A stretch of DNA of 64,000 nucleotides, taken from the sequence record OR067838.1; one strand, 5' to 3'. The DNA is from Escherichia phage KKP 3954. The notes beneath the pieces were generated by a model. That model saw only the letters and a list, made by a program, of their open reading frames with translations. It searched no databases and had not been told where the DNA came from. The position numbers were made by a program, and so were the translations under genes. Below, one piece after another: positions 3,777 through 62,977 of this stretch. The number at the start of each line of letters is the position of its first letter. Position 1 is the first letter of the stretch.

Positions 3777-4885
3777 CAAGTCCATTTTTAAAAGCAGCTA
3801 CTGGTGGTCAGAAGAAGCCTGAAATGAGCGTATTTGCTGCAACAACAGATGCAAGTAAATCTGTATTCGCTCCAAGCGTGTTAGATGCCAGTCCTGTTTA
3901 TGCACCAGCGGCACCGCAAGAAGTTCCAGTTTTGCCTTCTATGACCCGACAAGAGATCGAAGAGATTGGGGCAGAGGCAGGAACAACCTTGCGTTCCTTG
4001 AATGCCGAGGTATTAAAACATCAACGTAGTAATCAAGGAGATCAGATGAGTGAACGACTCACAGCTTTGATTAAACAGGCAAAACAACTTGATCCAAACT
4101 CTATTAAACAAAGCAAAGGTATTACTAAACTCATTAAAAAAGTTATGGGTATGAAAGAAGACCTGTTTGGGGAGTTTGATAATGTTAATAACCGTATTGA
4201 AGAGTTGGTAAAGAACCTTCAAATGGATATTCGCAAAGAAGAAGATTCCTTGGTATATCTTGAAAAGCTACATCAAGCTATTGGACAATATGCCGCAAGT
4301 TTGAACCGAGATATGCAGCTTCTAACAGCAACCTACGAAAAAGAAGAACAAGCTTTGGCTGCTCTTCCAGAAGATGCGGTAGAACAGCGACAAGTGATCC
4401 GAGATACTTTGGATCTTCTGGAGATTCGTATTGCGGATTTAAAAGCATTGCGCCTACTGTGTGTCCAAATGGGACCACGTGTGCAAGGTATGCAAAAAGT
4501 TTCTGCAAGCTTAATGCGATCTGCGCGTAACATAGTAAATAATGTTATTCCTGCTTACTCTGCTAACTTCTCAATGTATATTGAGAGCTTGCGTCAAATG
4601 AAAGCCGCAGAGACGCAGAATAACGTTCTTGATGAATTTAACCTGGCAATTAAACTGGGTAGCGATCTTGCCACACAGAATCAGATCGAAGCAGCAGCAC
4701 TGGCTAACCGTCAAGTGTTGGATATTGAAACTCTGCGTCACGATCAGGAAAACTTGGTTAAGATGTTGGAAGAAACTAACCGCATCAATACGGAAGCCCG
4801 TGCTGCTCGTGTTGATTATATTAATGAAGTTCAATCTCTGGAAGACGGGATGGTAGCTGCTGTGAAACGAGGGCTTGGTAAATGA
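3773..4885 (+). CDS. telA: TelA-like (toxic anion resistance family) protein, alpha-helical/coiled-coil
   Basis: About 370 aa, helical, Q/E/L-rich; size, composition and Ter-gene context fit the TelA/KlaB family; family assignment from memory, not searched. Confidence 0.5.
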   Translation: MTSPFLKAATGGQKKPEMSVFAATTDASKSVFAPSVLDASPVYAPAAPQEVPVLPSMTRQEIEEIGAEAGTTLRSLNAEVLKHQRSNQGDQMSERLTALIKQAKQLDPNSIKQSKGITKLIKKVMGMKEDLFGEFDNVNNRIEELVKNLQMDIRKEEDSLVYLEKLHQAIGQYAASLNRDMQLLTATYEKEEQALAALPEDAVEQRQVIRDTLDLLEIRIADLKALRLLCVQMGPRVQGMQKVSASLMRSARNIVNNVIPAYSANFSMYIESLRQMKAAETQNNVLDEFNLAIKLGSDLATQNQIEAAALANRQVLDIETLRHDQENLVKMLEETNRINTEARAARVDYINEVQSLEDGMVAAVKRGLGK

Positions 4886-5077
4886 GAATCCGTATCTATA
4901 TAATTGATGAAGACATTGGTGTCCGTTATGATGACGAAAAACGATTCGCACCGATGGGAGGCATATACCCCCAAGTGTTCTAGCAGTTTGTCGTGATTGT
5001 TATATTTATGAAGGTTGTCGTAACTTCCGTAAATTCGAACTCCTTGCAGATATTGACTTCAATGAGGAGGAGGAGTA

Positions 5078-5251
5078 ATGAAAATATTACGAGTGAATAT
5101 TGAAACTGCTTGGTGTGGATGTAATGAGGTTGTGGATATCGAAATTGAAGATGATATGTCTCAAGAGGATATAGAAGATCTTGCGCACGAAACCTTTCAG
5201 GACTATTGTAATTACGGGTTCCATATTTTAGAGGAGGAAGAGGATGTTTAA
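5078..5251 (+). CDS. small acidic protein (57 aa; below ORF-track length cutoff)
   Basis: ATG at 5078 preceded by GAGGAGGAGGAG RBS; ends at TAA 5249-5251, 4-nt overlap with next gene start. Confidence 0.4.
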   Translation: MKILRVNIETAWCGCNEVVDIEIEDDMSQEDIEDLAHETFQDYCNYGFHILEEEEDV

Positions 5252-6282: not shown

Positions 6283-7079
6283 ATGTCCGAGAAAATCAGC
6301 CTGAAAAAACGTCAAGAAAACCTTGCTTTCTCTCTGAAAAAGAATAAGAACCTGAACGAAGGTAAGATTGTTCTTCGTGTAGCATGTGCTCTAGATATTT
6401 CTGGTAGTATGCATGGTCTATATACTCGTGGGGTAGTGAGTGATTTTGTAGGTAAACTGCTTCCTTTTGGTATGCTGTTCGACGATAATGAACAAATTGA
6501 CATGTGGGCCTTCAATACGAGTTCTCAAGAGCTTACTCCAGCAACAGCAGACGTTTACGATGACTACGTTGGTAAATGTATGCGTAATGTTCGTATCGGA
6601 GGTGGAACAAATTACGCCCCTGTAATGGCAGATATCTACGATGAGTATTTTGGCACTGTTACCAAATATGTTACCACTAAACAAGTGGTATACAAGAGGA
6701 GGCTCCAAAGAAAGGCTTCTTTAATCGTCTGCTTGGTAAAACTGAAACAGTATCGGTAGAGCGTGAAAAAGTTGTAGCTGTATCTGAACCAGGTGCTGAT
6801 GTTACTCCTGGCGTTGTATTCTTCCAGACAGACGGTGAGAATGGTGATCCTAGTGCTGTTCGTCGTCTTATTGAAGAGAATAAGAATAAGCCTATCTATT
6901 GGTTCATGGTTGGCGTTGGTAATGAGAAGTTCAGCTTCCTGAAAGAACTGGCAAATGCTTATGACAATGTTGGTTTTATTGGCATTAAAGATTTAGACTT
7001 GACAGATTCAGAGCTTTATGACAAACTCTTATCTGAAGAGTTCGGAGAGTGGGTTGTTAAAGTAGGTGCTAAAAAATGA
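6283..7079 (+). CDS. vWA domain protein with TerD-like N-terminal motif; reading frame broken near 6690-6710 (track ORF 6283..6759 continues in another frame to 7079)
   Basis: MIDAS motif DISGSM and GGGTNYAP in first frame; the vWA TDG segment (VVFFQTDGENGD) lies in the downstream frame, which has no start codon of its own until about 6907. Confidence 0.55.
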
Positions 7080-15261: not shown

Positions 15262-16056
15262 TTGAGCAAGTTGAACACACTTGATCAATATTACACTAAC
15301 CCCGCTTATGCGGGGTTCTTATGTGATAAGATCAAAGAAATTTTTGGAGAGGAAGCTAACTACGTAGAACCATCTGCGGGAGAAGGAGCTTTCTCTTCTT
15401 GTTTTAAAAACATAACTTCTTTTGATATTGACCCTAAGTTTGAAGATTGTATTGAGGCAGATTTTTTAGCTCAATCTGTTGAGTCTGTTGGTAGTGTAAC
15501 TGCTTTTGTCGGTAATCCTCCATTTGGAAAAAATGCTAGTCTTGCCATTAAATTCTTTAACCATTGTGCTGAAATGCTGGATAACGAAGGTGGTATTTGT
15601 TTTATCTTGCCTCGCACATTTCAAAAAATCTTTTTTGCACACAAACTAAATCCCCATATGCATCTTCTTTACGAAGAAGAATGTCCAAAAGGATCTTTTA
15701 TTCTTCATGGAGAACCTTGGGATGTTCCTTGTGTATTCCAGATATGGATTAAACGCAACGAGAAGCGTTCTCCCGTTGTTTTAGGAGAGAATCGACTATT
15801 CGTATTAGGTAACAGTAAAGACTACGATATAGCCGTTAGGAGAGCGGGAGCAAGTGCAGGTAAAGTGTTATCAGAAGAAGATTCTTTATCTGAAGCATCT
15901 ACCTATTTTTTAAAAGCCTTGACTTCTGATCTTAAAACGCGTATCATTGAGGCTTACCCGTTACTTAAAGCTGAAGCTAGTAAAACTGCGGGAGTAAGAA
16001 GTTTAAGTTTAAAAGAACTTCAGTGGGTTCTGGAGAACATTAGAAAGGAGGAATAG
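15262..16056 (+). CDS. DNA N6-adenine methyltransferase
   Basis: AdoMet motif EPSAGEGAF and catalytic NPPF motif; TTG start after AAGGAGG. Confidence 0.65.
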   Translation: MSKLNTLDQYYTNPAYAGFLCDKIKEIFGEEANYVEPSAGEGAFSSCFKNITSFDIDPKFEDCIEADFLAQSVESVGSVTAFVGNPPFGKNASLAIKFFNHCAEMLDNEGGICFILPRTFQKIFFAHKLNPHMHLLYEEECPKGSFILHGEPWDVPCVFQIWIKRNEKRSPVVLGENRLFVLGNSKDYDIAVRRAGASAGKVLSEEDSLSEASTYFLKALTSDLKTRIIEAYPLLKAEASKTAGVRSLSLKELQWVLENIRKEE

Positions 16057-21280: not shown

Positions 21281-23956
21281 TTAGTCGTAATATTTCAAAC
21301 CTGTAATGAACTTCGATCCCCAATCCGCACTTGCGGCGGTGAACGTCAACATCCAAGTTGTAGCTGTACCAGTGAAGACCTCTCGTTGCACAATACCATC
21401 AGTGTGGTAAATGTCCACGCCAGTATGTCCATTCTTAGGAATAGTGAAGGTAACAGCACTGGTAGTGTCTCGTGCATAAGAACAAACAAATGGTGTCCCC
21501 GCCCAAACTGGATTTGTCATATCCCCCATCTCAAGCTGTGGAACCCAAGCAATAAGACCTGCCATACCATCTCCTGCGAAAGTGTCTGATCCACTTGCAT
21601 TCAAAGCTATAATCTCATAGGTTATAGATGCTTGTTTGGCAACTGTCACTTTGTGTAGAATTACACGATACCAACCATTCCCCATATCGATTATGTTTGC
21701 ATCTGCACCTGTAAATGTTCCAGCTACAAGATCATAAGTCCCTTCGTTAATCTCATCTCCTGAAGTCAATTTGAGTTTCACTTTAGTGATCCCATCTGGC
21801 TTCAAGAATACGGATGCCGCCCAGTGCTTACCTGCTGTAATATCAGAAGCTGTATTCACTGCTGATAAAATATGTTGTCCTGAAGTTGTAGAAGGTGTTA
21901 ACTTGTAAGTGTTAGCCGTAGTTCCAACCGGAGAGTTGATTGTTGATGCTGTGACTGTCAAGTTCGTCTTCAACCACGGGGAAGCTGTTGTCAAGTTATT
22001 GTTGATAAAGATATGTATACGGTTGGCTGCTACAACACGTCTACCTTGTGGAGTTGTACCAACATATTCTAAAGGTGCTACGGGAGCAGAACTCTCTGTA
22101 GGTACAAGGATATCTCCAGAAGCCCTGGCATAACGGTTACTCCTGTTGACCTTTACATCCGCCGGAATAGTTTCTTGCGTCAAATCATAGTCCATCACAA
22201 TCACCACAGCATTCACTGCGAGATAAGAACTATCTTCGGCAGTTACCACACCTTGATAAGTTGCTCTACAACCGATACGACAATCCCCATCAGCAACCGC
22301 TGTAATAACGCCTGTAACGGGGTCAACTGTTGCTACCGTAGGATCATTAGAGAAATACTCAACAACCATACCAGGTAAGCTTGCTGCCCCTGTTGGCGTT
22401 ATTTCTGCTACCATTGTTTGTGTTGTTCCTACATCCATCGCAGATAAGCTAGGAGTGTAAACGCTCAATGTTGAAGCATATCCTCCAGAGGTATCTGATA
22501 AAGTTGTTCCTTCAGCGTTTAAGGCTGTCATACCTGCATCAAAACCACCTTCTGCATGGAAAGTCATTAAACCAGTAGATGATATTGTCATGTTTGCAGG
22601 GGCAGAAGAAGTGTATTTAATATTGAAAAGTTTACCTCCTTCTGGGCTAACAGAATGTGTCAACTGTTTAGTTCCACCTACAATACAAATTCCTAAAGAA
22701 TCTGTAGTTAAGCCAGTTGCCAGAACATCACCCGTAATCACGGAGCTTGCTATTGGTGTGAATTTATTATAGTTTAGACCACTATTGAACAGATACGAAG
22801 CTTTCCCATCTTTCCAAATACCGGAATAATACATATCTCCATTATAAACGAAAAAGGTTCCTTGATAACCTAATTGGTTAGTAACATCCATATTCAGCGT
22901 ATGAACGCTTGTGAGCTTGTTTATATCCCAAGAACCCACTCCTTCAGGTTTAACTGGTTTTCCCACTTGGAGTGGATCTCCGCTCGCAGAATCATACCCC
23001 AAACCTAAGTTTGCAGTGTAGTTCTTACCAATAGCCCACAAGGAATTATTGATCCCAACGAAAAAAGAGTGGCGGCTTGGTGGAAACTTCCATGTTGAGA
23101 AACCTGCTGCAAAGGTATCCAGTTTAGTGTAGGTTGTTTCTGTATTAGATCTAACATATAAGTAGTTTACCATACCCGTGCCACCGGAGGTATCTCCTAC
23201 AACTATTGTCTGGGAAACTGTATTGATGTAATCTTTGACATACACTGTTTCAGTAGCGGATATCTTGGCATTGACAAAAGCTGTTGTTGTGTTATTATTA
23301 CCTGCTAAACCTTTACTAGCTCCACAAACACGCAAGGTTCCCACATTGTTGACATAAGAGCATTGGTTGTAACCTGCATCAAAAGCAACTGCTGCACTCG
23401 TTATTTGACGAGGAGTAGAAACTTCGTTAGTAGTACTTGCACCTAAACTGCCTACTGTGTTTTGACCCGATCCATAAAGAACGCCACTATTCATTAACCA
23501 GAGAGTGTTATTATATCCTCCCTTAACCTCTTTAAGATTGGCTAAAGAGATAGTCCCCGTTATTACAGATGGAAAGCTGGTCCAAGTAGTTACACATGCA
23601 TCCATACCACCTGCTGCTATAGATCCTACCAACCCTGCTGTCAATCCTGAATATTGCCATCCCCCACTATTAGTTTTAATAATAAAACAACGATCTGCGG
23701 TAAACACATCCGCTACTACAGTAGAAGCTAAGTAGAAATTATTGAATCGTGCACTACGAGTTCCATCTGCAATCTCACCAAAAAGGTTTGCACCTTGAGT
23801 AAACAATCTACCATCGTTAAGCAAAATTGCTAAACTACTGTTAGAATTACCAGCATTGTCTGGGTAATCTAAAGTGATTACTTTTTTAACAATACCCGCT
23901 GGCAGAGGAACGACACCAGTACTGGTCATAATAGTAAATATTGGAATTGGAAACAT
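21281..23956 (-). CDS. tail fiber/tailspike-like protein (receptor-binding candidate)
   Basis: 891 aa, Gly/Thr/Ser/Asn-rich; GGAGGG RBS; last gene of tail block. Confidence 0.55.
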   Translation of the reverse strand: MFPIPIFTIMTSTGVVPLPAGIVKKVITLDYPDNAGNSNSSLAILLNDGRLFTQGANLFGEIADGTRSARFNNFYLASTVVADVFTADRCFIIKTNSGGWQYSGLTAGLVGSIAAGGMDACVTTWTSFPSVITGTISLANLKEVKGGYNNTLWLMNSGVLYGSGQNTVGSLGASTTNEVSTPRQITSAAVAFDAGYNQCSYVNNVGTLRVCGASKGLAGNNNTTTAFVNAKISATETVYVKDYINTVSQTIVVGDTSGGTGMVNYLYVRSNTETTYTKLDTFAAGFSTWKFPPSRHSFFVGINNSLWAIGKNYTANLGLGYDSASGDPLQVGKPVKPEGVGSWDINKLTSVHTLNMDVTNQLGYQGTFFVYNGDMYYSGIWKDGKASYLFNSGLNYNKFTPIASSVITGDVLATGLTTDSLGICIVGGTKQLTHSVSPEGGKLFNIKYTSSAPANMTISSTGLMTFHAEGGFDAGMTALNAEGTTLSDTSGGYASTLSVYTPSLSAMDVGTTQTMVAEITPTGAASLPGMVVEYFSNDPTVATVDPVTGVITAVADGDCRIGCRATYQGVVTAEDSSYLAVNAVVIVMDYDLTQETIPADVKVNRSNRYARASGDILVPTESSAPVAPLEYVGTTPQGRRVVAANRIHIFINNNLTTASPWLKTNLTVTASTINSPVGTTANTYKLTPSTTSGQHILSAVNTASDITAGKHWAASVFLKPDGITKVKLKLTSGDEINEGTYDLVAGTFTGADANIIDMGNGWYRVILHKVTVAKQASITYEIIALNASGSDTFAGDGMAGLIAWVPQLEMGDMTNPVWAGTPFVCSYARDTTSAVTFTIPKNGHTGVDIYHTDGIVQREVFTGTATTWMLTFTAASADWGSKFITGLKYYD

Positions 23957-26083: not shown

Positions 26084-28801
26084 TTAGGTTGTTGGCACAT
26101 CTACTACTGGCGTTGGGCGAATAACCGCAGTATTACCTACAGAAACATTACTGGAATCATTAGGTATGGTTTTAATTCTAACTCCAGCACTTGTAGGCGT
26201 TACAATTGGATCTGCAATGTCTATTTTAACTGGGTTAGTCCACGTATCATTATCTTGATAAGGTGCACGAGTAATAACTGTGTCCAAATCTGCTCCACCT
26301 ACGCCAGCACCAGGAATACGGATACGTGTCCCTGCTGACAGAGGGTAATGATACAACCAAGAAGCATTTGTTGCTGTCCCGTTAGGAGTCAAGTTCTGTG
26401 TCAGGAAGGTATCTCCTGCCTGTGTAGCTCGAATACCGAAAGCTGGGATATCTGGAATATATGCCCCACTTGTTGTTACAAGGAAGAACGTATTATCCGC
26501 CTTGACTATCATATCACCTTTGTCAAACTCTTTCCCTGTTGGGAAATGCATTCCATCAATGTTTCGACTAGGATTAGGCTCTAAGTAATAAACTTTGCCC
26601 GTTGTCCCTACAATAGCTCCAATACCACCTGCGATATTGGTATACATATTAGCTTCAACATTACAGTTGACACGATGAATATCCGAGTAACGGCAACGGC
26701 TCCACTGTGGACGACCAGTAACCATCGTCTTGCCATCTGGGTAACAGTTTACGTTAACCATTTCAAGAACAGATTTTTCTCTACGGAAGAATCCATCATA
26801 AAATGTCCCTGGACCAGATTCAGGTTGACCAACACAATCGAAGATATTACAGGTAATGTTAGACATTGAAAGCCAAGAAGCTATACCGAACAACTGCAAT
26901 GCAGCGCAACGAATATTTTCAAAGCTAACTCTGTTTTCATAACCTGGACCAGCGGAAACTCCCGCAAAAACACGCCCAGTTTTGGTGTGAATGTTACGAA
27001 CAGAATAGTTAAAGCATGGATTTGAAGGTCTGCCCTGTGCCGGAACTACCGGATTACCTTCTTCGTCCAGAACTGCGTTAGTTCCCCACTCCAAATAAAT
27101 CATACGGATATTACTTGCAAGTGTGCTACCGTCTGTTTTAGGCTCTCCATAAACACCGTCAATCGTAAAATCTTTACTTCCATACATTACAACTGCGCCA
27201 GTTGCCAAACCTGTCCCAACAGATACAGTCTGGTCTGGATCGCCATGAATGTTTTCGATAGAGATATTACGACCAACTTCTACATGGACAATCTGACGAC
27301 AACGTTTTGCAAAAACGTTACGAATTGTAATATTCTTGCAATATTGATCATCAGGGATTCCGTAACCATATGGTCCTTTACCAGCTACACCGATACCGAT
27401 ACCCCAGTTGGACAGAGGAATAGGAGCGTTAGTCCCATCGATATTAGACAGGTAAATATTCTCAATCACACAACCATCGTCATAATGTTTATTGATGACG
27501 TTCAGTTCTATTGCATCACCTTGCATGTCCATGAAGGTAAGGTTACGGAAGACACCACGTGTTACTGGTTCCCCTGTTCCTTGTTGAAGGATGCCATACA
27601 ACCCGTTTTTAAAAATACAGTTATCAATTTCAAAAATACCTGATATTGGGTTGCCTTGGAATACCAAGCTACCAACTTGACCTGCGCGAGGAGCACCGTC
27701 CCACAAACAATCGAACATGCGCACAGCACCACCCCAATACATAACACGAGAGTTACGGAAAGTTGTGCCTTCTACTGTAGCATTTTGCACACGATAGTCG
27801 CGTTGACCACGGAACACACCCCCACGCAAAGTGATACCTTGAATATCAAAAGAGCTTGTCGTGAAAGTCATATCGCAACCGTAAGCATCGAGAATCTTGC
27901 TTTTCGAAGCTTTTGCTGCTAACAGTGCCGCTTGGAAAGCTGCTTCTGGTGTGGTATATGTTGTTGTGTTGTTAGCAAATTCTGACAAGTAGACAACATC
28001 GAATAAATCGTTGTATGTTCCACCACGAGGGGTTAACAGTCCTTCTGTATTGGTCAGAACCCATGCATTTGGACCTAATCCACCGCTTGTCTCCAATGTA
28101 TCAGAGGCCAAAATACTTTTTGGTAAACTTCCAGCCCAACGATAACGACCAGCACCACGTCCAATCGTCTGATTTTTAGCTGTCAGAGTTACGTTATTAC
28201 CAAAGCTTGTAGGCAAATGAACAAACTGTCCACGTTCAACAGCTAGTGCAGAAAGATCTACAGACCCCCCAGAATAAGTCATTACTCCAGAAACAGACAA
28301 GGATGTTAAAGTTCCTGTGATGTTAGGAGGTAATGTGTAGGAAGACTGTGCTACTGGATCATACAGAGCTTTAATCCCTGTTAACGATTGACCTGCTGTT
28401 GCGTAAGCCACCTCATCATCTAACAAACCATATTTACGAGCAATAGTTTGCAGAGGGACTTTATCCATGCTTTCTGTTAGTTCTTCCGTTTTTGTTTCTA
28501 AACTAACAAGACGGTTCTCTAGATTAGGATCTGTATCTGCTGAAGCTACGATTTTACCAATATAAGCAAAAAGCTTGTTTGGTAGTCCTGTTGCAGGATC
28601 GTGTCCCAAAGGTTCAGATAAGATGATCTTACTATCTTCTATACGGAAAGCTTCTCCCAGAACCTGAATAACACCGTTGATAGTAACAATAGCACTGTCA
28701 AAAATATAAGGAGGACTAATTACTGTTTCATAACCCGTTGCACCAGAATATACCCACGGGGTGACTTCTGTTGCTAATTGTTCTGTTTTCAGTCCCCACA
28801 A
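26084..28801 (-). CDS. tailspike protein with parallel beta-helix (pectate lyase-like) repeats; probably the C-terminal body of a gene whose N-terminus is 28819..29139
   Basis: 905 aa with beta-helix-like repeats (NITIRNVF, NISIENIHGD); TTG start without RBS; frame open upstream into previous ORF. Confidence 0.55.
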   Translation of the reverse strand: MWGLKTEQLATEVTPWVYSGATGYETVISPPYIFDSAIVTINGVIQVLGEAFRIEDSKIILSEPLGHDPATGLPNKLFAYIGKIVASADTDPNLENRLVSLETKTEELTESMDKVPLQTIARKYGLLDDEVAYATAGQSLTGIKALYDPVAQSSYTLPPNITGTLTSLSVSGVMTYSGGSVDLSALAVERGQFVHLPTSFGNNVTLTAKNQTIGRGAGRYRWAGSLPKSILASDTLETSGGLGPNAWVLTNTEGLLTPRGGTYNDLFDVVYLSEFANNTTTYTTPEAAFQAALLAAKASKSKILDAYGCDMTFTTSSFDIQGITLRGGVFRGQRDYRVQNATVEGTTFRNSRVMYWGGAVRMFDCLWDGAPRAGQVGSLVFQGNPISGIFEIDNCIFKNGLYGILQQGTGEPVTRGVFRNLTFMDMQGDAIELNVINKHYDDGCVIENIYLSNIDGTNAPIPLSNWGIGIGVAGKGPYGYGIPDDQYCKNITIRNVFAKRCRQIVHVEVGRNISIENIHGDPDQTVSVGTGLATGAVVMYGSKDFTIDGVYGEPKTDGSTLASNIRMIYLEWGTNAVLDEEGNPVVPAQGRPSNPCFNYSVRNIHTKTGRVFAGVSAGPGYENRVSFENIRCAALQLFGIASWLSMSNITCNIFDCVGQPESGPGTFYDGFFRREKSVLEMVNVNCYPDGKTMVTGRPQWSRCRYSDIHRVNCNVEANMYTNIAGGIGAIVGTTGKVYYLEPNPSRNIDGMHFPTGKEFDKGDMIVKADNTFFLVTTSGAYIPDIPAFGIRATQAGDTFLTQNLTPNGTATNASWLYHYPLSAGTRIRIPGAGVGGADLDTVITRAPYQDNDTWTNPVKIDIADPIVTPTSAGVRIKTIPNDSSNVSVGNTAVIRPTPVVDVPTT

Positions 28802-28818
28802 TACCCAGTTATTATCCC

Positions 28819-29139
28819 CTACTGGAGAATACCTTGCATAGGGATTGGGTTTACCAATGTAGCATTAGGAGCATAATAATAACCGCTCAATACCCCATTC
28901 TGGAAATAACGCAGTTGGTTAAAAACCGTTTCATTTGTGCCTTGCGCCCAATCCAATGGACTTTTAAAGAAAAAGTTGTCAACAAGGGCTTTTCTCAGGG
29001 TTGGTATCAACCCTGATTCTGTTTCAATACTCTCTGTAGCACTTCCATTAATAACATCATGGAGTTGGTTAGACGAGAAAATAACCAGATCTACGCCCTG
29101 TTCAAGAGACGTTGCTGGATATGTTGGGAATGTTGCCAT
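28819..29139 (-). CDS. tailspike N-terminal domain (likely same gene as 26084..28801, separated by a -1 frame break)
   Basis: ATG with AAGGGG RBS; downstream ORF frame is open from 28862. Confidence 0.5.
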   Translation of the reverse strand: MATFPTYPATSLEQGVDLVIFSSNQLHDVINGSATESIETESGLIPTLRKALVDNFFFKSPLDWAQGTNETVFNQLRYFQNGVLSGYYYAPNATLVNPIPMQGILQ

Positions 29140-38387: not shown

Positions 38388-39305
38388 TTACTCGGTAACG
38401 TCCACACTAATGTTTGCCATTGTCAAAACAGTAAGTGCAGGAATATTGCTCGAATCCAAAACAGGTAATGCATTTTGGGGATTAAGTTTTTTGTATAAAG
38501 CATACAACCCAAAACCACGTAACAACTCTCCAGCGTGGAAGCCAAAGAAGACTCCGTTATCACTATCTGGTCTAGGAGCGGAACTCCAACAGCCATTCAT
38601 AACATGATTAGGACCAAGAACAATATAATTTTCCTGAATAAGTTCAAAACAGCGGTCTGCTACTATTTTAATGTTAGGAATTTCTGAATCATACCCAGCC
38701 ATCCCCATTATAGCACATCCTGCCATAAAGAGCGCAGACATGTGACTTGTAAAGTCATCTACAGGTGCTGCCACTTCTCCGTTGGGATAAAATATTGTTG
38801 GTGTTCTTCCTTCGTTGTTGTCTTGGAACCACTTTAGATAGTTGATCCAGTTTTTACAAACTGTTAAAAGTTTTTCAGGAACTTCTGCCCCTCGTTGTTT
38901 CAGTTCGTATACTGTATGACACGCACAGAAGAATGCTCGTGCTTCATAACCATCCCAAGCTTTATCGTTCCAATGATACATTGTGAACTCATTCTTGTTT
39001 CCGTATTTATGAGCATCCCAACGATCCCAAACATAAGCTTGTGCCATTGGTCCAGGCATCACAGGGGCAAACTTATTATAAAACCACATTTGTGAATCAT
39101 ATAAAAAGTCTATACTGTTGTTCATACGAACCCAATCAATATCTCTCCCTTTAAAACAATATAAGGATGGGTATTGATAACCTGGGTAAGGAATACCACG
39201 CCAACCGTCATATAAGGCTGTGTTAGGATCACTGATATTGGAAAATGGAATGATTCCTGGAGTATAATTCAAACTGTTAAGTTTGTAGTCCAGTATTGTA
39301 TACAA
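38388..39305 (-). CDS. hypothetical protein (TTG start, no RBS; frame open upstream into 39269..41266)
   Basis: ORF track; 37-nt overlap with upstream gene. Confidence 0.45.
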   Translation of the reverse strand: MYTILDYKLNSLNYTPGIIPFSNISDPNTALYDGWRGIPYPGYQYPSLYCFKGRDIDWVRMNNSIDFLYDSQMWFYNKFAPVMPGPMAQAYVWDRWDAHKYGNKNEFTMYHWNDKAWDGYEARAFFCACHTVYELKQRGAEVPEKLLTVCKNWINYLKWFQDNNEGRTPTIFYPNGEVAAPVDDFTSHMSALFMAGCAIMGMAGYDSEIPNIKIVADRCFELIQENYIVLGPNHVMNGCWSSAPRPDSDNGVFFGFHAGELLRGFGLYALYKKLNPQNALPVLDSSNIPALTVLTMANISVDVTE

Positions 39306-41266
39306 TCTCCAAGTTTTGCTGTATAAGGATTTTCAGATGAAACTGTAACCCTGAAATACATTGTGTAATCATCACCAGTGGCTGAAGAATACAAAGATGG
39401 TATATCGTTAACGCAATAAAAATCGATTGCCCCTGTCAAGCCATTTGCAGGTTCAGAATCCAATGCAATATTGATCTGATCAACAGCAGTCAGGTTTATT
39501 GACGAAGGTTTTGCCTCTGTGTCTTCGTGATTAGGTTGCCAAGTACTTAATTTGAAATCGGCAGGACTTAAAGCTTTAGTAACCCATGCAGAATTTGTTT
39601 TTTCTAACATGGCCCACCATCTCCAACCTGCGGAATCCGTAATAGTGATGTTAAAATCATCTGCGTATGAACGATACGTAATAGATTTTAAATTGGCTGT
39701 TTTAGTTGGTGTTAACCAAAACCCAACAGTAAAACCACCATCTGAATCCATATTAGCAGAAACTATCTGATCACTATTTGTCCCAGCAATACCAGTTGCA
39801 TATTTATATTGTATCACAGTATTGCTTCCCCAGTCAACAATGATTCTAGGTTCAGCAATAATATATACACCACCCCCAGGAGGTTCGGTGCGCATAAAAC
39901 TGGATAGAGGTATATCCATCTTAGTCATATTAGCTGCACCAAGAGGTAAGCCACAACGATATGTCACTGTATCTGTTTCACTCTTAGTCTTGCTTAATTC
40001 TAACTCTGGACGGAAAAGAACACCTTCCCCTGCATCATCTACACCTTGAAACTCAATACGCAGTTTTGAATTCTGATCCACTCTGAACCAAACTGCCTGT
40101 TGTTCTAGAGTTGTTTGTGCTGCAACATCTTGGCGAATTACTGTGTATCCTAACTCGTCACGAGAATATTTAGGTATTGCTGTAGATGGGTATGAGTAAT
40201 CATACGAGATACCGTCTGTAAAAGGAATTATTGCTGTAGTAGATCTACGGAAGAATTTATCAAACATATCAATGTTTGAGTAGTCTTGGCACAGCAATAA
40301 AGAAGATTGCCAGCAAAGCCAGTATTTTCTCTCTCCTGTGATCTGATACATCAGGTAGTTTGCATCACACCACCACGTTTCAGCATCGGAAGCATTATCT
40401 TGATAACCTAACTCTACCGGAACGTTTACAGGACGGTTATGCCACATCTCATTACGCTTAAGCAGATATCCACCGTGTTCTACAGGGTTGCATGTAGCGT
40501 AGTTGAATTTATAGTCACCGTTCACAGAAGCATTTTTAAGCTGCACTGTTCCATATTCTGCGAAGCTGTGACCTGTAGATAAAATGTTACCATCCCAATC
40601 AACTTTACGTCCTAGACGATCTATAATCCATTCAACGTCCCACTGATCTCCATATTCTTTCCAGTTGGTTGAACCATCTGGGTTAATTGCATAAACTGTT
40701 GCGTTAACGGAGTTCCAACCAAGATTACCATTGAAAGCAAACCAAGCTTTATCTAAGTATTCCCCCCAATGCGGTGCACCTTTAGGAATAACAGTCCTTC
40801 CGTTAATCCAAGTCATCATGCTACCTTTGAACCCGCCGTGCGTAGGATACCCATCATCTGTGAGAGGGTAATGTGCTAAACGTGGTTCTTTACCATTGAT
40901 GATCCAGTTGGGACGATATTTAGCTGGAGGATCAGGAATAGGTTGGCCCCCGAAGAAGTGATCTATATAAGCTTGCCAATACTTTTCGGCAGATTCAAGA
41001 TATTTTTTATCCCCTGTAGCCAAATATGCATAAGCAAAACCAGTGATAAGCACAGATTGACCTTCGGTAGTAGCGTCACCGTTTGGTTGCCCTTCCTGCG
41101 CTGTCCAGTTAATAAAGTGTCTGTTGTTCGCCAATACGTTTTGTGGGTTGATAATGTAGTGCTGAACCGTAGGATCTATGGTAAGCCCAGTATTTCTTTC
41201 CAAAAACTGAACCAACCCTTCAATCAACTGAAACGTGTTGTCAATATTGTGCTTAACTCTTGACAT
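39269..41266 (-). CDS. tail fiber/tailspike-like protein
   Basis: 665 aa ORF. Confidence 0.5.
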   Translation of the reverse strand: MSRVKHNIDNTFQLIEGLVQFLERNTGLTIDPTVQHYIINPQNVLANNRHFINWTAQEGQPNGDATTEGQSVLITGFAYAYLATGDKKYLESAEKYWQAYIDHFFGGQPIPDPPAKYRPNWIINGKEPRLAHYPLTDDGYPTHGGFKGSMMTWINGRTVIPKGAPHWGEYLDKAWFAFNGNLGWNSVNATVYAINPDGSTNWKEYGDQWDVEWIIDRLGRKVDWDGNILSTGHSFAEYGTVQLKNASVNGDYKFNYATCNPVEHGGYLLKRNEMWHNRPVNVPVELGYQDNASDAETWWCDANYLMYQITGERKYWLCWQSSLLLCQDYSNIDMFDKFFRRSTTAIIPFTDGISYDYSYPSTAIPKYSRDELGYTVIRQDVAAQTTLEQQAVWFRVDQNSKLRIEFQGVDDAGEGVLFRPELELSKTKSETDTVTYRCGLPLGAANMTKMDIPLSSFMRTEPPGGGVYIIAEPRIIVDWGSNTVIQYKYATGIAGTNSDQIVSANMDSDGGFTVGFWLTPTKTANLKSITYRSYADDFNITITDSAGWRWWAMLEKTNSAWVTKALSPADFKLSTWQPNHEDTEAKPSSINLTAVDQINIALDSEPANGLTGAIDFYCVNDIPSLYSSATGDDYTMYFRVTVSSENPYTAKLGDCIQYWTTNLTV

Positions 41267-44120: not shown

Positions 44121-44535
44121 TTACGCCTGATTAGGTTTGTTATCAATATAAACCAATACAAAACGTTTATCTCGACCTGTAGTTGTATACCCAGGACGAC
44201 CATTAATCTTAACTGTATCTACTATATACAATTGACCATCTGGCACACTTTCAAGATATTTATAAGGTTTAAGAAGATCTAAACCATTTGTAACTTTGAA
44301 ACTTATACTTGGATCATCTCCAGATAATCCTATCTGACATTGCCAAGACTCGTCCCTAGTGTTCCACCTTAAACGAATGTCATAATCAACTCCATCCAAT
44401 GTAACTGTATATGTTTGATCAGGTATACTCTTCAGTTTTCAGATACCATGCAAAATAAGTAGAATGGTCCTCCAGATAAACTGCACTGTAGCCTGTATTA
44501 CTTGTAGACCTTGTTGTTTTAGAATAAGTTGTCAC
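44121..44535 (-). CDS. hypothetical tail protein; track ORF 44121..44399 (TTG, no RBS) plus probable N-terminal extension from GTG 44535 (RBS GGAGG), joined by a +1 frame break at a T4 run
   Basis: GTG 6 nt after GGAGG; downstream frame open across junction; break at plus 44436-44439. Confidence 0.4.
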
Positions 44536-45365: not shown

Positions 45366-47355
45366 TTAACCACCAGTGTTAGATTGTCCACTTAGAGTTG
45401 AAAGAGACAAACGTTGGAAAATACTATTTCCGCTATTTTGAATTCTTGCATCAAGAATATTTCCAAACTCGGAAGAAGGGCTGATCGTAACTTTGATAAG
45501 ATCACTTGGTATTGCTACCGTATTCTCAACAACAGGTTGATTACGAGCCAAACTTACGTTAGGTGTATAGGCTGATTCACGTAAATCTTCAAGAGGATTA
45601 CCAAATCCAAAAGCACGTGTCCTTGTTTGTTCTCCTCTCCACATACGACCAATATCTTGTGTATCAATACCTGTTAAATTATACAACCAATCTGCTACAG
45701 GATTGCTGTCTCCACTTTGCGTTGCCTCGTATGCTTTTTGTGCCAAAGATTTATTAGGATCTGTGTTGTCTCCGAAGGTATCTGGGAATGTTTCTTTAAG
45801 CCAATTGGTAAAAGATCCGAAACCATCTCCTAATTCTTTAGCAAAACCACCAAGTTGAACTGTTGTTTTACCAAGTTCTTCACCTAAATCTTTGGCGAAC
45901 TGATCTAGCACTTTAACGTTATCCAACCAAGAATCATCTTTAGGTAAAGCTTTTACAAAACCTTCTAAGAAATGGTTCTGCATACCTTGACCTACAAGCT
46001 GAACTGTTGCAGCAAAACGAGTAAACTCTTTAGAAGCATCTATTTGTTCTTGAGTTAATGTTGCACCTGTTCTTTGAAGCATTTTCAATACTTCATTATA
46101 CCCTTCGCCGTTTTTACTAAACATACGTTGGTAGTGCATAAGGTCATCACCAAGGTTTTCAAGAAGTCGCCCGATTTGAGCGGAGTTCATACCTCGACGC
46201 TCACCTTCATTAACAGTAGCCTGAATAAAAGCTAAAGGATCGTTCTGTAAAGGTTTAAGCTGTTCTGGATTCCATCCAAACAAGTTCATAATGTCAGTTA
46301 TGCCATTATCACCGCCTTTCCACTTCCCTTCTTTCTCATTCCACTTTGCAGCTAAAACTGTATTACCAAGACGTTCACGAACGTCTTTAATATTATCTAT
46401 TGATTTAATAATATTTGCAGAGTCTACACCGTTCTGTTCACCCCAAGCTGTCATTGCCAAAATAGCGTTGGCGTTTGTCTGAACGTTTTCAGCACCACGG
46501 CTTACAAGTTTAATTCTTTCGTTAGTATTCATCAACGTGTTACCAACTACAGAACCACCTGCAAACAGCCCAGCACCTATTAAAGAGGATGCAATCATGC
46601 GTGGATTAAGACCTGCCGCACCTTCTTTTAATTGTCCATATCGACGATCACGATCACGTTTTTGTTGAGCTAATTCACGCTTACGGTTGCGTTCTATATC
46701 TCTAAGTTCACGATTTCGCATACGTATACGCATTTTAGCTTCTGCTTCTAACTCTCTACGAATACGGCGACGACCGCGAACCTCGTCTTCTATTTCAGCA
46801 TTCTTTTCACGATGCGATCTGCGTAAAGCATCCAACTGGTGAGCAAGAGCTTGGTTCATACGTTGAAGAGTTATTTCACCCTTTTTGTATTGCTCTACAG
46901 CTTTACCCATAACATCTCTAGCTTCTTGCATAGCGCCAGGACTGGCTTTACTAAATGCTCTTGCTCTGTAGTTAAAGTTCTGCAAACGAAGATTACCTAA
47001 GTCTTCCCTACGTGCTGCTGCTTTAGCTTCGCGTTCAGCAGCTTTACGAGCTTTTTTCTTCTTCTCTTCCTTGCGGGGTTTTAGGAGTTCTAGGTCTGCC
47101 AGATCCGCCTACAGGAGCACCCGCTCCAGCGGGAGTAGGTGCTCGCATAGGTTTTTGACTTTGAGTTTGAGCTTTCTTAAGTTCACGCTCAATCTCTTTC
47201 ATTTGTTGTCTAAACTTGGTCATGTTCATAGTGGGTTGCATTTTATTTGCAAACTTCTGAACACTCAACACGGCATCTTTTGCTTCCTTGAGACTGTTCT
47301 TGTCCACCTTAAACGTAACCACGTTACTAATTTTGGAGGCGTTAATTTCTAACAA
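45366..47355 (-). CDS. tail tape measure protein; two ORFs (47044..47355 and 45366..46985) joined by a +1 frame break at a 6-nt homopolymer
   Basis: TTG start after GAGGA; both parts K/R/E-rich helical; break at plus T6 47053-47058; removing one base fuses the frames. Confidence 0.55.
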
Positions 47356-48661: not shown

Positions 48662-50072
48662 TTATTTTGATAACGGGGGGCTTAACCCCCGCCGTATTAG
48701 TTTGCAAGTACGGTTAGTCAGGACGTTGACCTGAACTTTAACGTAATGGAAGAAGCCAGCGTAAACATATTCAATCTTCATCCCATCAACCAGACGAGCA
48801 TTGATTTGCGCATCGGTCATATCGGCACGAGAAGGAATATAAACAATAGGTTTCAGATCGACACGCAAACCAGTCTCTTCAGAAGTAACAACTTCATTAG
48901 CGATGGAACCGTTGAGGATACCTACTTGGATCGGGTTAGCCAGAACAGCTTGTCGAATCAAAGCCAGACCGTTTGAAGTAGCACGAACACCACCACCCAG
49001 CATAGACTGTTGTTTAAACAGTGTAAACAGTGATTCTTCTGTGCGAGCTTTAAACCACAAAGCATGAACAACATAGTCAACAAAGAAACCGCTAACCATC
49101 AATCCATCACGATAGAACAGAGTTCCATGCTCTTTACGATAGATGTTACCGTTCTGTTGAACAATATTGTTTTCCGAAGTCTGATCCAGTTTCTCGATCT
49201 CTACTCCTACCAGTGTTTTACCGTGAAGGGTAGTTAAACCAGGTTGACGAGAACAGATTGCACCAACAACTGCTGCTTCTGGGAATACAGAATCTGCATC
49301 AGTCATCCACAAAGCAAAGCAAGTGTTATTATAACCGAGGTCATTCAGTCGTTCCAGAACGTTATCTTCTGCTTTCGTTTTAATTCCAGGTTCAGAGCTA
49401 GAGAAGAAGTAAACTTTATCATTCTCTTCTACCCATGCAGCCAAAGCTAGAACATCTTCTGTTTCATGGGAATCTGAAAGGGTCCAGAACCAGCTACTAT
49501 CAATATCATGCAGAGCAGCGATATCTTCCGTAATAGCATTAGCATAGACAGTTTCTTGAGTGAAACCTGTGCTGTCAATAGAACCAAACTTACCTTCTAC
49601 TGGAGTGAAAGTCATTGCAGCGCCGTTGTTAGCTACTGTAAACAGTGGGCCATAAACAAGATCTGCATTGATCATTTCAGTCAGACCAACTACAATCTCT
49701 TGTGCAGTTGCAGTGTCATCAGCAATGAATTTAAATTCTTTTTTCTTGGGTACCATTTTTGATGGTAATTGTGTAAGTTGCACTATCTTCTACGATTGGA
49801 GTTAGAGTAAAGTTTGTAACTTCACGCTTACCAACCATGACTTGATCTGGTGGGAACAAACCGTTAAACAGTTTGACTGCCATAATATACGCTGGATCAT
49901 TTAATCCATAACCTGCTTCCAAAAGTGCATCGGAAGAAGAGTAATATTGAATCGCTTCGCCAGTTACGTTCTGACCTGTAAGGATCAGAGGAATATCGAA
50001 CTGGGTTTCACGAATTGATGTAGCACCATACAGTAAAGTTACGGTTGCTACCTTTTCACGAAAAGTTGCCAT
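48662..50072 (-). CDS. tail sheath protein; two ORFs (49731..50072 and 48662..49783) joined by a +1 frame break at a 6-nt homopolymer
   Basis: AGGAG RBS before ATG 50072; break at plus T6 49739-49744; combined about 470 aa upstream of tube gene. Confidence 0.55.
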
Positions 50073-53697: not shown

Positions 53698-53973
53698 TTA
53701 AGAAGTGAAAACGACTTTTTCGGTCAGTTTCAGATCATGTGTTTCCAGTGCTGCTACGCCAGCGTCATCTACCAGGGAGCCATCTTTGTAGTATACTGCA
53801 AAGCGGTTCAGAGTAAGATCACGTACGCCAACAACTGCGGTGAAAGTGTCACCTACTGCTACATCATCAATACCGAACAGAGCATCAGTCCAAATCAGAA
53901 CTTTAGCAGCATCGGCAGCTTCAGCTTTAGCAGCTTCAGTGTTGTCAGCTTTCAGGATAGAACCAATTTTCAT
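53698..53973 (-). CDS. putative head decoration protein
   Basis: 91 aa, immediately upstream of capsid gene as in lambda D-E order. Confidence 0.4.
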   Translation of the reverse strand: MKIGSILKADNTEAAKAEAADAAKVLIWTDALFGIDDVAVGDTFTAVVGVRDLTLNRFAVYYKDGSLVDDAGVAALETHDLKLTEKVVFTS

Positions 53974-54117
53974 GGTTGCTGTTTTAACCAGGTTAACTTC
54001 ACGTATACACAGTGTCCAAGGTCAGAGCTAAACACTCCACCCAGAACCAGGTGTCCGAATTCCTGGCGAGAGTTAGATAAAGTAATTCCTTTAGCCATTT
54101 AATTTAATCTCCTAAGA

Positions 54118-55235: not shown

Positions 55236-55715
55236 TTAGTCCTTCTTGACTTTAACGCCCATTGCGCCTATACTCAAACCTTTAAGAACGCCGTCTTTAC
55301 GAGCTTGATATAATTCAGGGTCGTTGAATTGGATTTTAACGAGGGGAGTTCCTTCCACAACGAGTTCGTCACCAATGTAACAATCGACTTCATTTACCCA
55401 AGCTTTAATTGGAGAAAACTTATCGGTGTTCTTCATGTGACCAAGATTACCACTAATGTTGGTAATATTCTCATTGAAGTTGTCAACCATCTTCCTGATT
55501 TCCAAATCAGACATGCGCTCTCCGTGGAGATCGTCTTCTTCAGGTGGACAATACAAGACCTCAATAACCTGCATCTTTTCTTCATCAAATTTATTTTGTT
55601 TGACTAAAGTTTCAGGTTTTTGAGATGGTATAGAATCTTGTTGGGATTCAGAATTCTCTTTAAAACCAGCGAAGGTTTTGAAGAGTTCCCACAGTGTATC
55701 TTTATTGAGTTCCAT
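55236..55715 (-). CDS. hypothetical head protein
   Basis: ORF track. Confidence 0.4.
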   Translation of the reverse strand: MELNKDTLWELFKTFAGFKENSESQQDSIPSQKPETLVKQNKFDEEKMQVIEVLYCPPEEDDLHGERMSDLEIRKMVDNFNENITNISGNLGHMKNTDKFSPIKAWVNEVDCYIGDELVVEGTPLVKIQFNDPELYQARKDGVLKGLSIGAMGVKVKKD

Positions 55716-61053: not shown

Positions 61054-61132
61054 TGGAGGCGGGAATTGGATTTGAACCAATGATCTCCAGCATATGAAAC
61101 TGGCGAGGACGACCAGACTCCTCTATCCCGCT
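61054..61132 (-). tRNA. tRNA-Met (anticodon CAT), initiator-like
   Basis: Manual fold: T-arm ATTGG-TTCAAAT-CCAAT, anticodon loop TTCATAT; 3' CCA encoded; ends approximate by 1-2 nt. Confidence 0.6.
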
Positions 61133-61138
61133 ATCATG

Positions 61139-61208
61139 TATCCCGTGCTGGATTCGAACCAGCGTCACAATAAATTGTGGATCTCTTATCCTGTAAGTCT
61201 AACGGGAA
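61139..61208 (-). tRNA. tRNA-like gene, aberrant (anticodon arm has only a 4-nt loop); possible pseudogene
   Basis: Good T-arm GCTGG-TTCGAAT-CCAGC and 6-bp acceptor stem, but anticodon region folds as CACAA-TTTA-TTGTG. Confidence 0.4.
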
Positions 61209-61210
61209 AC

Positions 61211-61284
61211 TGGTTGTTTCGACAAGAATCGAACTTGTGTCTCACGATTATCAGTCGTGGGTTCTACCATTGAACTACGAAACA
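61211..61284 (-). tRNA. tRNA-Ile (anticodon GAT)
   Basis: Manual cloverleaf: acceptor TGTTTCG/CGAAACA, loop CTGATAA, T-arm ACAAG-TTCGATT-CTTGT, CCA encoded. Confidence 0.7.
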
Positions 61285-61290
61285 TTTAAT

Positions 61291-61367
61291 TGGTCGGAAT
61301 TGCAGGATTCGAACCTGCGACCCTACGCTCCCAAAGCGTATGCTCTACCAAACTGAGCTAAATTCCG
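61291..61367 (-). tRNA. tRNA-Pro (anticodon TGG)
   Basis: Manual cloverleaf: acceptor CGGAATT/AATTCCG, loop TTTGGGA, T-arm GCAGG-TTCGAAT-CCTGC. Confidence 0.7.
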
Positions 61368-61372
61368 TTATA

Positions 61373-61448
61373 TGGCTGGTCTGTCTGGATTTGAACCAAA
61401 CCTACGACAGTCAAAGTGTCGTGTGCTACCGGACTACACTACAAACCA
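61373..61448 (-). tRNA. tRNA-Gln (anticodon TTG)
   Basis: Manual cloverleaf: anticodon stem CGACA/TGTCG, loop CTTTGAC. Confidence 0.6.
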
Positions 61449-61546
61449 ATAAATCATTTAATGAAGGGCAACCAGAAGAAGTGTGAGAGAAGGAGAAAAC
61501 CATGAGTAAAAGAGAAAGTTTTCTGGCAACCCTTTATTAAATAATT

Positions 61547-61620
61547 TGGAGCGTTCTACGAGGATCGAACTCGTGCCGCCGACTTGGAAGGACGGAATGC
61601 TACCGCTACACCAAGAACGC
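61547..61620 (-). tRNA. tRNA-Gly (anticodon TCC)
   Basis: Manual cloverleaf: acceptor GCGTTCT/AGAACGC, loop CTTCCAA, discriminator U. Confidence 0.6.
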
Positions 61621-61631
61621 CCTATATATTT

Positions 61632-61661
61632 ACTATACTACATTTTACTATTTGTTGTCAA
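61632..61661 (-). promoter_or_regulatory. sigma70-like promoter on minus strand (TTGACA, 18-nt spacer, TATAGT) for the downstream tRNA genes
   Basis: Hexamers read from reverse complement just upstream of tRNA-Gly. Confidence 0.5.
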
Positions 61662-61933
61662 GACTTTTATTGATTGGGACAGTGACGAGTATCCCGTTGG
61701 GTGACTAGCCCTACGTTCGGTAAGCTAACTTAAAATAATACAAAACCAAAGTCAAATATTATTCTTCGTTGCTGTCGATGGGAGAGCCGCTTCTCATTTT
61801 GCCCCATCCAACCCTACTCCGGTCAAGTTTCGGGTGACTCTTTTTGTGATCAACACAATACTAAGAACACTGTCTTTCGAGCAGACCTTGTGCACAGGAA
61901 CGACGATCAATCACAATGCTCTTAATGTTGTGT

Positions 61934-62008
61934 TGGTGCTCCCACACTGAATCGAACAGAGATCCACGGATTACAAAACCGTTGTAATAGCCATTATACT
62001 ATAGGAGC
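61934..62008 (-). tRNA. tRNA-Thr (anticodon TGT)
   Basis: Manual cloverleaf: acceptor GCTCCTA/TGGGAGC, loop TTTGTAA. Confidence 0.6.
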
Positions 62009-62014
62009 AATGCT

Positions 62015-62091
62015 GGGACTCGGCAGGATTCGATACCTGCAATTCCAGAAGCCTATTGGCGACTGGGGGTTTACCTTAACTCTACAAGTCC
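62015..62091 (-). tRNA. tRNA-like gene, anticodon unresolved (irregular anticodon arm, 8-nt T-loop)
   Basis: 7-bp acceptor stem GGACTTG/CGAGTCC and T-arm GCAGG-TATCGAAT-CCTGC, but no canonical 5-bp/7-nt anticodon arm. Confidence 0.4.
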
Positions 62092-62098
62092 ATAATTC

Positions 62099-62184
62099 TG
62101 GCGATGAGTATAGGATTCGAACCTATATTGTTCTTTCGAACACGGATTAACAGTCCGCCGCTTAAACCGTTCAGCCAACTCATC
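62099..62184 (-). tRNA. type-II (long variable arm) tRNA with Asn anticodon GTT
   Basis: Perfect 7-bp acceptor GATGAGT/ACTCATC, discriminator G, CCA encoded; anticodon arm CGGACTGTTAATCCG; variable arm GTTC-GAAA-GAAC. Confidence 0.6.
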
Positions 62185-62190
62185 TTAATT

Positions 62191-62278
62191 TGGTGGTGAG
62201 TGATGGAGTCGAACCACCCGAATCGCAATGATAACAGATTTACAGTCTGCCCCGCTACCCCTACGGAATTAACTCACC
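62191..62278 (-). tRNA. tRNA-Tyr (anticodon GTA), type II
   Basis: Anticodon arm GCAGA-CTGTAAA-TCTGT; discriminator A; CCA encoded. Confidence 0.65.
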
Positions 62279-62409
62279 TAAATACTAATATTTAAATTCT
62301 TTTTAAAATAGCCAGTGTTCGCACCACTAACTATGAGTTATCGGTAAGATGGTGGGGGGCTATCTTCCGAAAGTTTACTCTATTAAAGTAAGCTACATTA
62401 AAAAGAACT

Positions 62410-62495
62410 TGGCGGTAGATGTAGGACTCGAACCTACACGCCGTTTCCGACTACAGTTTAGCAAACTGTCGTGGCTACCATTTCACCAATCTACC
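62410..62495 (-). tRNA. tRNA-Ser (anticodon GCT), type II
   Basis: Anticodon arm ACAGT-TTGCTAA-ACTGT; long variable arm; discriminator G. Confidence 0.7.
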
Positions 62496-62500
62496 TAATC

Positions 62501-62591
62501 TGGCGGAAGGAGGGAGAGTCGAACTCCCAAGGCTCTTTCAAGCTCGGCGGTTTTCAAGACCGTTTTCGTCGCCACATCGATTTGCCCTTCC
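62501..62591 (-). tRNA. tRNA-Ser (anticodon TGA), type II
   Basis: Anticodon loop CTTGAAA; T-arm GGGAG-TTCGACT-CTCCC; long variable arm. Confidence 0.65.
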
Positions 62592-62599
62592 ATACTTAT

Positions 62600-62629
62600 A
62601 ATCTAACATAAAATAATGATTGTTGTCAA
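62600..62629 (-). promoter_or_regulatory. possible sigma70-like promoter on minus strand (TTGACA; -10 TAGATT) upstream of tRNA-Ser
   Basis: Hexamers read from reverse complement. Confidence 0.35.
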
Positions 62630-62825
62630 TACTTTTTTAAAACATTTTACCATGAATGGTGACTCCACCAACCCCCGTTCTCCACGAACGGTGCTCTTCG
62701 AGCATTTATGTCTTCTAATATAACCGTGGCCTTTGTTTATAATGTCTGACATACTTGCCTCATTCTCTGCCACCATGATCAGTAGTGGGTTCAAATCACT
62801 TGAGCTAATTCATGTTAAAATGTTC

Positions 62826-62900
62826 TGGTGTCTTTACAAGGAATCGAACCTTGACTAAGAGTTTAGAAGACTCCTGTGCTATCCATTACACCATAAAGAC
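62826..62900 (-). tRNA. tRNA-Arg (anticodon TCT)
   Basis: Acceptor GTCTTTA/TAAAGAC; loop CTTCTAA; T-arm CAAGG-TTCGATT-CCTTG. Confidence 0.65.
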
Positions 62901-62902
62901 GT

Positions 62903-62977
62903 TGGTGGCCCTGGCTGGTTTCGATCCAGCTACCTATCGGTTATGAGCCGACAGCTCTCCCATTGAGCTACAGGGCC
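62903..62977 (-). tRNA. tRNA with anticodon CAT, Ile2 (lysidine)-type by resemblance to E. coli ileX; alternatively elongator Met
   Basis: Acceptor GGCCCTG/CAGGGCC; loop CTCATAA; 5' and 3' ends resemble E. coli tRNA-Ile2. Confidence 0.6.

Follow-up and report, generated by a model that had tools for sequence, protein, structure and literature searches.

A tail sheath gene split in two in the record of Escherichia phage KKP 3954: very probably a GTAC-specific sequence error

In the deposited sequence of Escherichia phage KKP 3954 (OR067838.1) the tail sheath gene does not form a single open reading frame, which raises the question whether it is recoded, has become a pseudogene or is split only in the sequence record. 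We analyzed a stretch of 64,000 nucleotides from this record, here called the window. Its sheath region is located on the minus strand and consists of a 113-aa ORF and a 373-aa ORF that overlap by 53 nt, with the second ORF in the +1 frame (Table 1). Residues 1-108 of the 113-aa ORF are identical to the sheath protein of phage vB_Ec-G1. The GTG listed as the 'start' of the 373-aa ORF is not a real start, and the final 13 codons of this ORF are out of frame due to a second insertion (48706-48707). The overlap carries the mRNA sequence ...GGTACCCAAGAAAAAAGAATTTAA, which includes a run of six A residues (A6). The initial annotation had described two ORFs in a +1 relation, an ATG with a ribosome binding site, and an A6 run whose sequence context recurs at a frame break in the tape measure gene. 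All of these elements are present: AGGAG precedes the ATG, and the window contains exactly two copies of the decamer AAGAAAAAAG, both in minus sense, one at 49738-49747 in the sheath gene and one at 47051-47060 at the tape measure break.

Table 1. Features discussed in the text, with positions in the 64-kb window.
Feature	Position	Strand	Remarks
Tail sheath gene, true extent	48697..50072	-	1376 nt versus 1374 nt / 457 aa in relatives
Tail sheath N-terminal fragment, 113-aa ORF	49731..50072	-	Native ATG, AGGAG 8 nt upstream
Sheath C-terminal part, 373-aa ORF	48662..49783	-	+1 frame
A6 run (plus-strand T6)	49739..49744	-	Native; equal length in all aligned relatives; not the lesion
GGG run with private extra base (relatives GG)	49748..49750		Adjoins GTAC 49750-49753, within GGTACC 49749-54
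AA where relatives have A	48706..48707		Adjoins GTAC 48708-48711; second private sheath frameshift
G6 run (relatives G5)	48675..48680		Private homopolymer insertion; non-coding, GC-rich hairpin just downstream of sheath gene
T6 run (mRNA A6; relatives A5)	47052..47057		Private homopolymer +1; tape measure gene
T4 to T5	1585		Private homopolymer +1
1-nt deletions	4967, 61899		Private
GTAC to GTATAC, clean TA insertion	6689-6690, 39299-39300, 54004-54005		Private indels
GGGTAC to GGTATAC	44424		Private indel
Complex indel at GTAC	63987		Private
Complex indel in tail fibre gene	28828-28829	-	Private; relatives GGAGTCCCTTG, window GGAGAATACCTTG
65-aa ORF	4882-5078		Frameshifted
264-aa protein	6283-7079		Frameshifted
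1017-aa colanic-acid-degrading tail fibre	26084-29139		Frameshifted
958-aa tail protein	38388-41266		Frameshifted
137-aa virion structural protein	44121-44535		Frameshifted
132-aa head decoration protein	53698-54098		Frameshifted
ORF annotated in relatives as 'putative DNA N6-adenine methyltransferase'	15262-16056	+	PHROG 799 (DNA methyltransferase), 1e-10, first 120 residues only

With the 1411-nt sheath region as query, 70 phage records match, 59 at an identity of at least 99%; nearly all are assigned to Phapecoctavirus (phAPEC8-like coliphages, Stephanstirmvirinae). Every annotated relative that we examined contains a single uninterrupted CDS of 1374 nt (tail sheath / DUF3383), and 30 of 30 GenBank relatives among the matches listed align to the 1411-nt query with 1408 nt. 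The A6 run resides unchanged inside this intact CDS, as seen in the alignment for the five fully aligned relatives and as judged by match length for the 30 listed relatives. The split-ORF architecture is not conserved; among the 30 listed GenBank relatives, two metagenome contigs and the window, the window alone is split.

An alignment with three relatives shows where the three extra bases of this region lie: 49750, 48707 and 48680. The first changes GGTACC of the relatives into GGTACCC (mRNA sense), 4-9 nt upstream of the A-run, and the resulting GGG is, judged from this alignment, the real cause of the first frame break. The initial annotation had located the break at the A6 homopolymer, which is however wild type and identical in the relatives. 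The second insertion, at 48706-48707, is a further private frameshift of the sheath gene that had escaped notice; it replaces the native C-terminus ...NRTAN by ...NRTCKLIRRGLSPPLSK and makes the sheath ORF 12 aa longer. When the bases at 49750 and 48707 are deleted, a protein of 457 aa is obtained that is 100% identical to the vB_Ec-G1 sheath EcG1_091. The repaired sheath, scored through this identical protein of the relative, matches PHROG 205 'tail sheath' (2.9e-100 over residues 1-456) and Pfam DUF3383 (7e-20), whereas the deposited 113-aa and 373-aa ORFs are without full-length homology to PHROG 205 or DUF3383 in one reading frame. The earlier proposal to fuse the two ORFs by dropping one A from A6 does restore an open reading frame, but the product reads ...GTQEKEFKF where the native protein has ...GTKKKEFKF, and its C-terminus is still wrong. 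The variant with the extra C (GGTACCC) found no match in IMG/VR, GTDB genomes or E. coli genome and plasmid collections, while the wild-type version without it is present in two metagenome contigs.

Both sheath insertions adjoin a GTAC, and this tetranucleotide stands out in the whole window. We aligned the window to five relatives (vB_Ec-G1, ESCO5, phAPEC8, ESCO13 and tuntematon) and, as a control, also took each relative as the focal genome. The number of private differences is 368 in the window versus 223-510 per relative, but 29 of those in the window lie at or abut GTAC versus 1-3 per control genome. Only 26 GTAC sites are found in the window versus 56-70 in the five relatives, and about 18-20 sites have been lost privately versus 1-3 per relative at comparable divergence. 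Of the GTAC sites conserved in the five relatives, about 62% are altered. In an unbiased scan of sites conserved in the five relatives, GTAC ranks first of 136 strand-symmetric 4-mers, with 17 of 28 sites changed versus a background of 2.4% (p=4.7e-21). The same scan provides no sign of Dam/Dcm motif errors, an independent nanopore signature, as changes affect 1 of 215 conserved GATC sites and 3 of 52 conserved CCAGG sites.

The window-private states of GTAC are ATAC (10), GTATAC (3), GTAT (2) and GTGC (2). At strictly private sites the plus-strand miscalls are skewed, with ATAC at ten and GTAT at two (binomial p=0.04). No clear extended motif emerged when we looked for a flanking-base rule dividing miscalled from correct GTAC; at most, A-GTAC tends to appear as A-ATAC and GTAC-T as GTAT-T. 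Examples of miscalled sites are found at 23604, 24596, 27615, 27636, 30647 and 58680, and many of the miscalls result in false Thr to Ile exchanges in minus-strand tail genes. The private substitutions at GTAC sites affect the first and fourth positions of the motif irrespective of codon phase, even though a synonymous route to destroy GTAC is available in every frame. Ten of them are nonsynonymous and nine synonymous, versus 53:275 for all other private substitutions (Fisher p=4.8e-4). Apart from the GTAC sites and three homopolymers, the private differences of the window conform to normal purifying selection.

Thirteen private indel events were counted in the window, seven to eight of them at or abutting GTAC and three in homopolymers of at least four bases. 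They frameshift eight genes, at least six of which encode virion proteins, and the sheath gene is hit twice. With head decoration, sheath, tape measure and tail genes among the eight, this is a load that is incompatible with a viable myovirus. In the tape measure gene (45366-47355, minus strand) a change from A5 to A6 splits a 662-aa gene into parts of 103 and 539 aa, and this break is evidently a genuine homopolymer-length error. The AAGAAAAAAG context that it has in common with the sheath gene is a coincidence. At 28828-28829 the private change brings in a string containing ATAC at a place that lacks GTAC in the relatives; the phage itself may in truth have a private GTAC there, which was then miscalled. 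The deletion at 61899 was considered as a cause of tRNA damage and rejected, as the site is located between tRNA-Gly and tRNA-Thr and all ten tRNAs were detected. The array (61054-62977, minus strand) consists of ten intact genes (Met, Ile, Pro, Gln, Gly, Thr, Asn, Ser, Arg, Met).

On this basis the sheath gene is very probably intact in the real phage, and its split would be an error in the deposited or assembled sequence brought about by a GTAC-motif-specific process. We judge the split to be an artefact because the changes are private, concentrated on GTAC and unfiltered by selection, and because removal of two bases exactly restores the native protein. Two single-base insertions would have entered the consensus, each directly beside a GTAC (GG to GGG at 49748-50 and A to AA at 48706-7). 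They would belong to a window-wide error process that strikes about 60% of the GTAC sites and in which the misread site appears as ATAC, GTAT or GTATAC, or keeps its GTAC and gains a copy of one flanking base. Far less frequent +1 errors in homopolymers would come on top of this (tape measure A5 to A6, terminator G5 to G6, and T4 to T5).

As to the technical cause, we infer a nanopore consensus error on modified DNA, read by a basecaller untrained for the modification. The virion DNA would have been modified at GTAC, the agent being either a phage function or, as the likely source, a GTAC restriction-modification methylase of the host used for propagation, and the assembly would have been made without polishing by short reads or by reads from demodified DNA. 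Motif-specific, consensus-resistant nanopore errors that stem from untrained modifications and occur beside homopolymer indels have been described for GCAGC and GCTGG in Listeria, where they number in the thousands (PMC10687267). The error profile of the window, i.e. substitutions and indels at a motif, occasional homopolymer indels and an otherwise clean sequence, matches this published case, suggesting that the virion DNA was probably modified at GTAC. Both concentration on a motif and absence of selective filtering, as expected for this class of errors, are observed here. Several points argue against it. The clean change of GTAC to GTATAC at three sites is not a described nanopore error signature, and complete modification of a palindromic site would not obviously predict the 10:2 bias of ATAC over GTAT. 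Natural avoidance and fast evolution of GTAC in the genus also mean that some few private substitutions, above all synonymous ones to GTGC and GTAT, may be real.

A generic homopolymer-length error, as known from 454, Ion Torrent or nanopore sequencing, would explain the break as a miscounted run for which the motif is irrelevant. The extra sheath base does lengthen a run, from GG to GGG, and three clear homopolymer +1 errors are present in the window (47052, T5 to T6; 48675, G5 to G6; 1585, T4 to T5). However, A6 is wild type, the affected sheath runs comprise only 2 nt and 1 nt and both abut GTAC, and of about 280 runs of at least 5 nt in the window only two to three have been miscounted versus about 60% of the conserved GTAC sites. 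In addition, three indels are TA insertions inside GTAC, which lengthen no run. We regard a purely homopolymer-based origin of the sheath split as improbable. Programmed recoding, in which +1 ribosomal frameshifting or transcriptional slippage at A6 fuses the two ORFs into a full-length sheath, draws some appeal from the position of A6 within the 53-nt overlap and from the second copy of the decamer at the tape measure break. It is hardly credible, as the relatives carry the same A6 inside one ORF, a shift at the A-run replaces the conserved KKKEF by QEKEF, and the gene contains a second, unrelated C-terminal frameshift, while no A-run is present at the breaks in seven other genes. A run of six A residues is also too short for efficient transcriptional slippage, and the sheath is needed in hundreds of copies. 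The initial annotation had offered site-specific recoding as the alternative to systematic indel errors in the assembly, and only the latter suggestion finds support here: the split is private, removal of two bases recreates the protein of the relatives, and seven other genes are broken likewise. The errors are mainly tied to GTAC and not, as had been thought, to homopolymers; of the sheath and tape measure breaks, that in the tape measure gene alone is a true homopolymer change.

It is also conceivable that the changes are real: a restriction system that cuts GTAC would have driven the loss of these sites from the lineage, GTATAC might stem from fill-in repair after cleavage at G^TAC, and the genome would belong to a defective or decaying phage. 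GTAC is indeed the most avoided 4-nt palindrome in every relative (56-70 sites observed versus about 205 expected, observed/expected 0.28-0.33), and the five relatives, which are only 1-3% diverged, differ from one another at 28 of 57 GTAC sites, mostly by synonymous changes. GTATAC is the exact product of filling in and religating a staggered G^TAC cut, as made by Csp6I/CviQI-type cleavage, and the clean insertions at 6689, 39299 and 54004 match such a filled-in cut. The natural variants among the relatives nevertheless look different from those in the window. They comprise 20 synonymous and five nonsynonymous changes and affect all four motif positions (GTAT 7, GCAC 7, GTGC 4, ATAC 4); natural losses are thus 80% synonymous, whereas about 50% of the window-private substitutions are nonsynonymous and are accompanied by frameshifts in eight genes that no plaque-forming phage could carry. 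Moreover, each relative has lost only 1-3 GTAC sites privately versus about 18-20 in the window, and selection has acted normally on the other private differences of the latter. Real loss of the sites is therefore very improbable. Codon effects and frameshifts led us to reject natural restriction avoidance as the explanation for most of the changes, even though the genus avoids GTAC. The genus-wide avoidance itself looks like ongoing selection against a GTAC-cutting system. Its strength suggests that GTAC restriction systems are common among the hosts and that the phage itself does not protect GTAC.

If the GTAC-specific sequence error is accepted, it can be asked who modifies the DNA. It appears rather unlikely that the error signature is the footprint of a real GTAC base modification that is undescribed for Phapecoctavirus and possibly phage-encoded, instead of ordinary host methylation. 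Even if the modification were phage-encoded, the sheath 'frameshift' would remain an artefact. Phapecoctavirus phages contain an uncharacterised methyltransferase-like gene and several glycosyltransferases. A dTDP-rhamnose pathway is reported for these phages, and glycosylation of their DNA has been speculated upon (Olsen et al. 2020). The Vequintavirinae and phi92-like phages tested in the BASEL study, which are grouped with the phAPEC8 cluster, proved highly sensitive to restriction. GTAC methylation appears in papers on Helicobacter methylomes and on PabI-type base-excision restriction systems, and in the literature searched we found no description of a GTAC-motif error or modification in coliphage, Phapecoctavirus or E. 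coli DNA.

Matching of the phage ORFs to Pfam and PHROG did not identify a GTAC-specific methyltransferase, a further point against the proposed technical cause. The ORF at 15262-16056 resembles a DNA methyltransferase family in its N-terminal part (Table 1) and has no Pfam match at 1e-3. A 159-aa protein encoded between the portal and scaffold genes (55236-55715, minus strand) is designated 'DNA methyltransferase' in the RefSeq entries of ESCO5, ESCO13 and tuntematon. The Pfam match of this protein is to Peptidase_S78_2 (XkdF-type prohead protease, 1.4e-11), and in vB_Ec-G1 it carries the annotation head maturation protease; the methyltransferase label is hence probably a misannotation.

The biological weight of our observations is small, given that the sheath gene would be neither recoded nor a pseudogene, and their value is a practical one. 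At least eight genes appear to be falsely split in the 64-kb window, head decoration, sheath, tape measure and tail fibre among them, and about 20 GTAC sites seem to carry false substitutions, half of which change an amino acid. Annotation, protein clustering and SNP-based comparison that start from this record will consequently be wrong until it is polished. Its frame breaks are unfit for mining recoding signals, and any split gene in the window should be read accordingly. The motif-specificity hints at a GTAC modification in the DNA of this phage preparation, which is consistent with the avoidance of GTAC throughout the genus. A separate observation concerns one of the reference genomes. With tuntematon (NC_052660.1) as the focal genome we counted 15 inserted and 14 deleted private indel bases and five private substitutions that create stop codons, and the nonsynonymous share of its substitutions is high (150:318); none of these changes is located at GTAC. 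The tuntematon record may in part be divergent or of poorer quality.

Once two bases are removed, the window encodes the same 457-aa sheath protein as the intact Phapecoctavirus genes (phAPEC8 gp158, ESCO5 gp247, vB_Ec-G1 EcG1_091), and it shares with these phages the gene order tail terminator - sheath - tube - chaperone - tape measure. The deposited gene differs from them: it is broken into parts of 113 aa and 373 aa, and its C-terminus is wrong. Programmed frameshifts in tail genes, i.e. those of the G/GT type for tail assembly chaperones, likewise have a pair of overlapping tail-module ORFs whose shared segment contains an A-rich run. In contrast to these, the split in the window is not conserved, affects the gene for the major sheath protein, lacks a slippery heptamer and shows a +1 relation, and the relatives have a single ORF. 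Homopolymer pseudo-frameshifts in phage records are paralleled by the changes from A5 to A6 in the tape measure gene, from G5 to G6 at the terminator and from T4 to T5, and they have the same outcome, an essential gene split in two; the sheath breaks deviate from them in that they are +1 changes in runs of 2 nt and 1 nt flanking GTAC and do not reside in A6. In its sequence pattern the window resembles assemblies with modification-dependent nanopore errors (GCAGC/GCTGG in Listeria, PMC10687267; Dam/Dcm sites in enterobacteria). Here as there, one short motif is affected, the errors survive into the consensus and are private to one assembly while the homologous sites of relatives are perfectly conserved, and homopolymer indels occur alongside at a low rate with the rest of the sequence being accurate. 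In those cases most errors are mismatches, whereas a large share of the events in the window are insertions, either of TA into GTAC to give GTATAC or of a duplicated flanking base.
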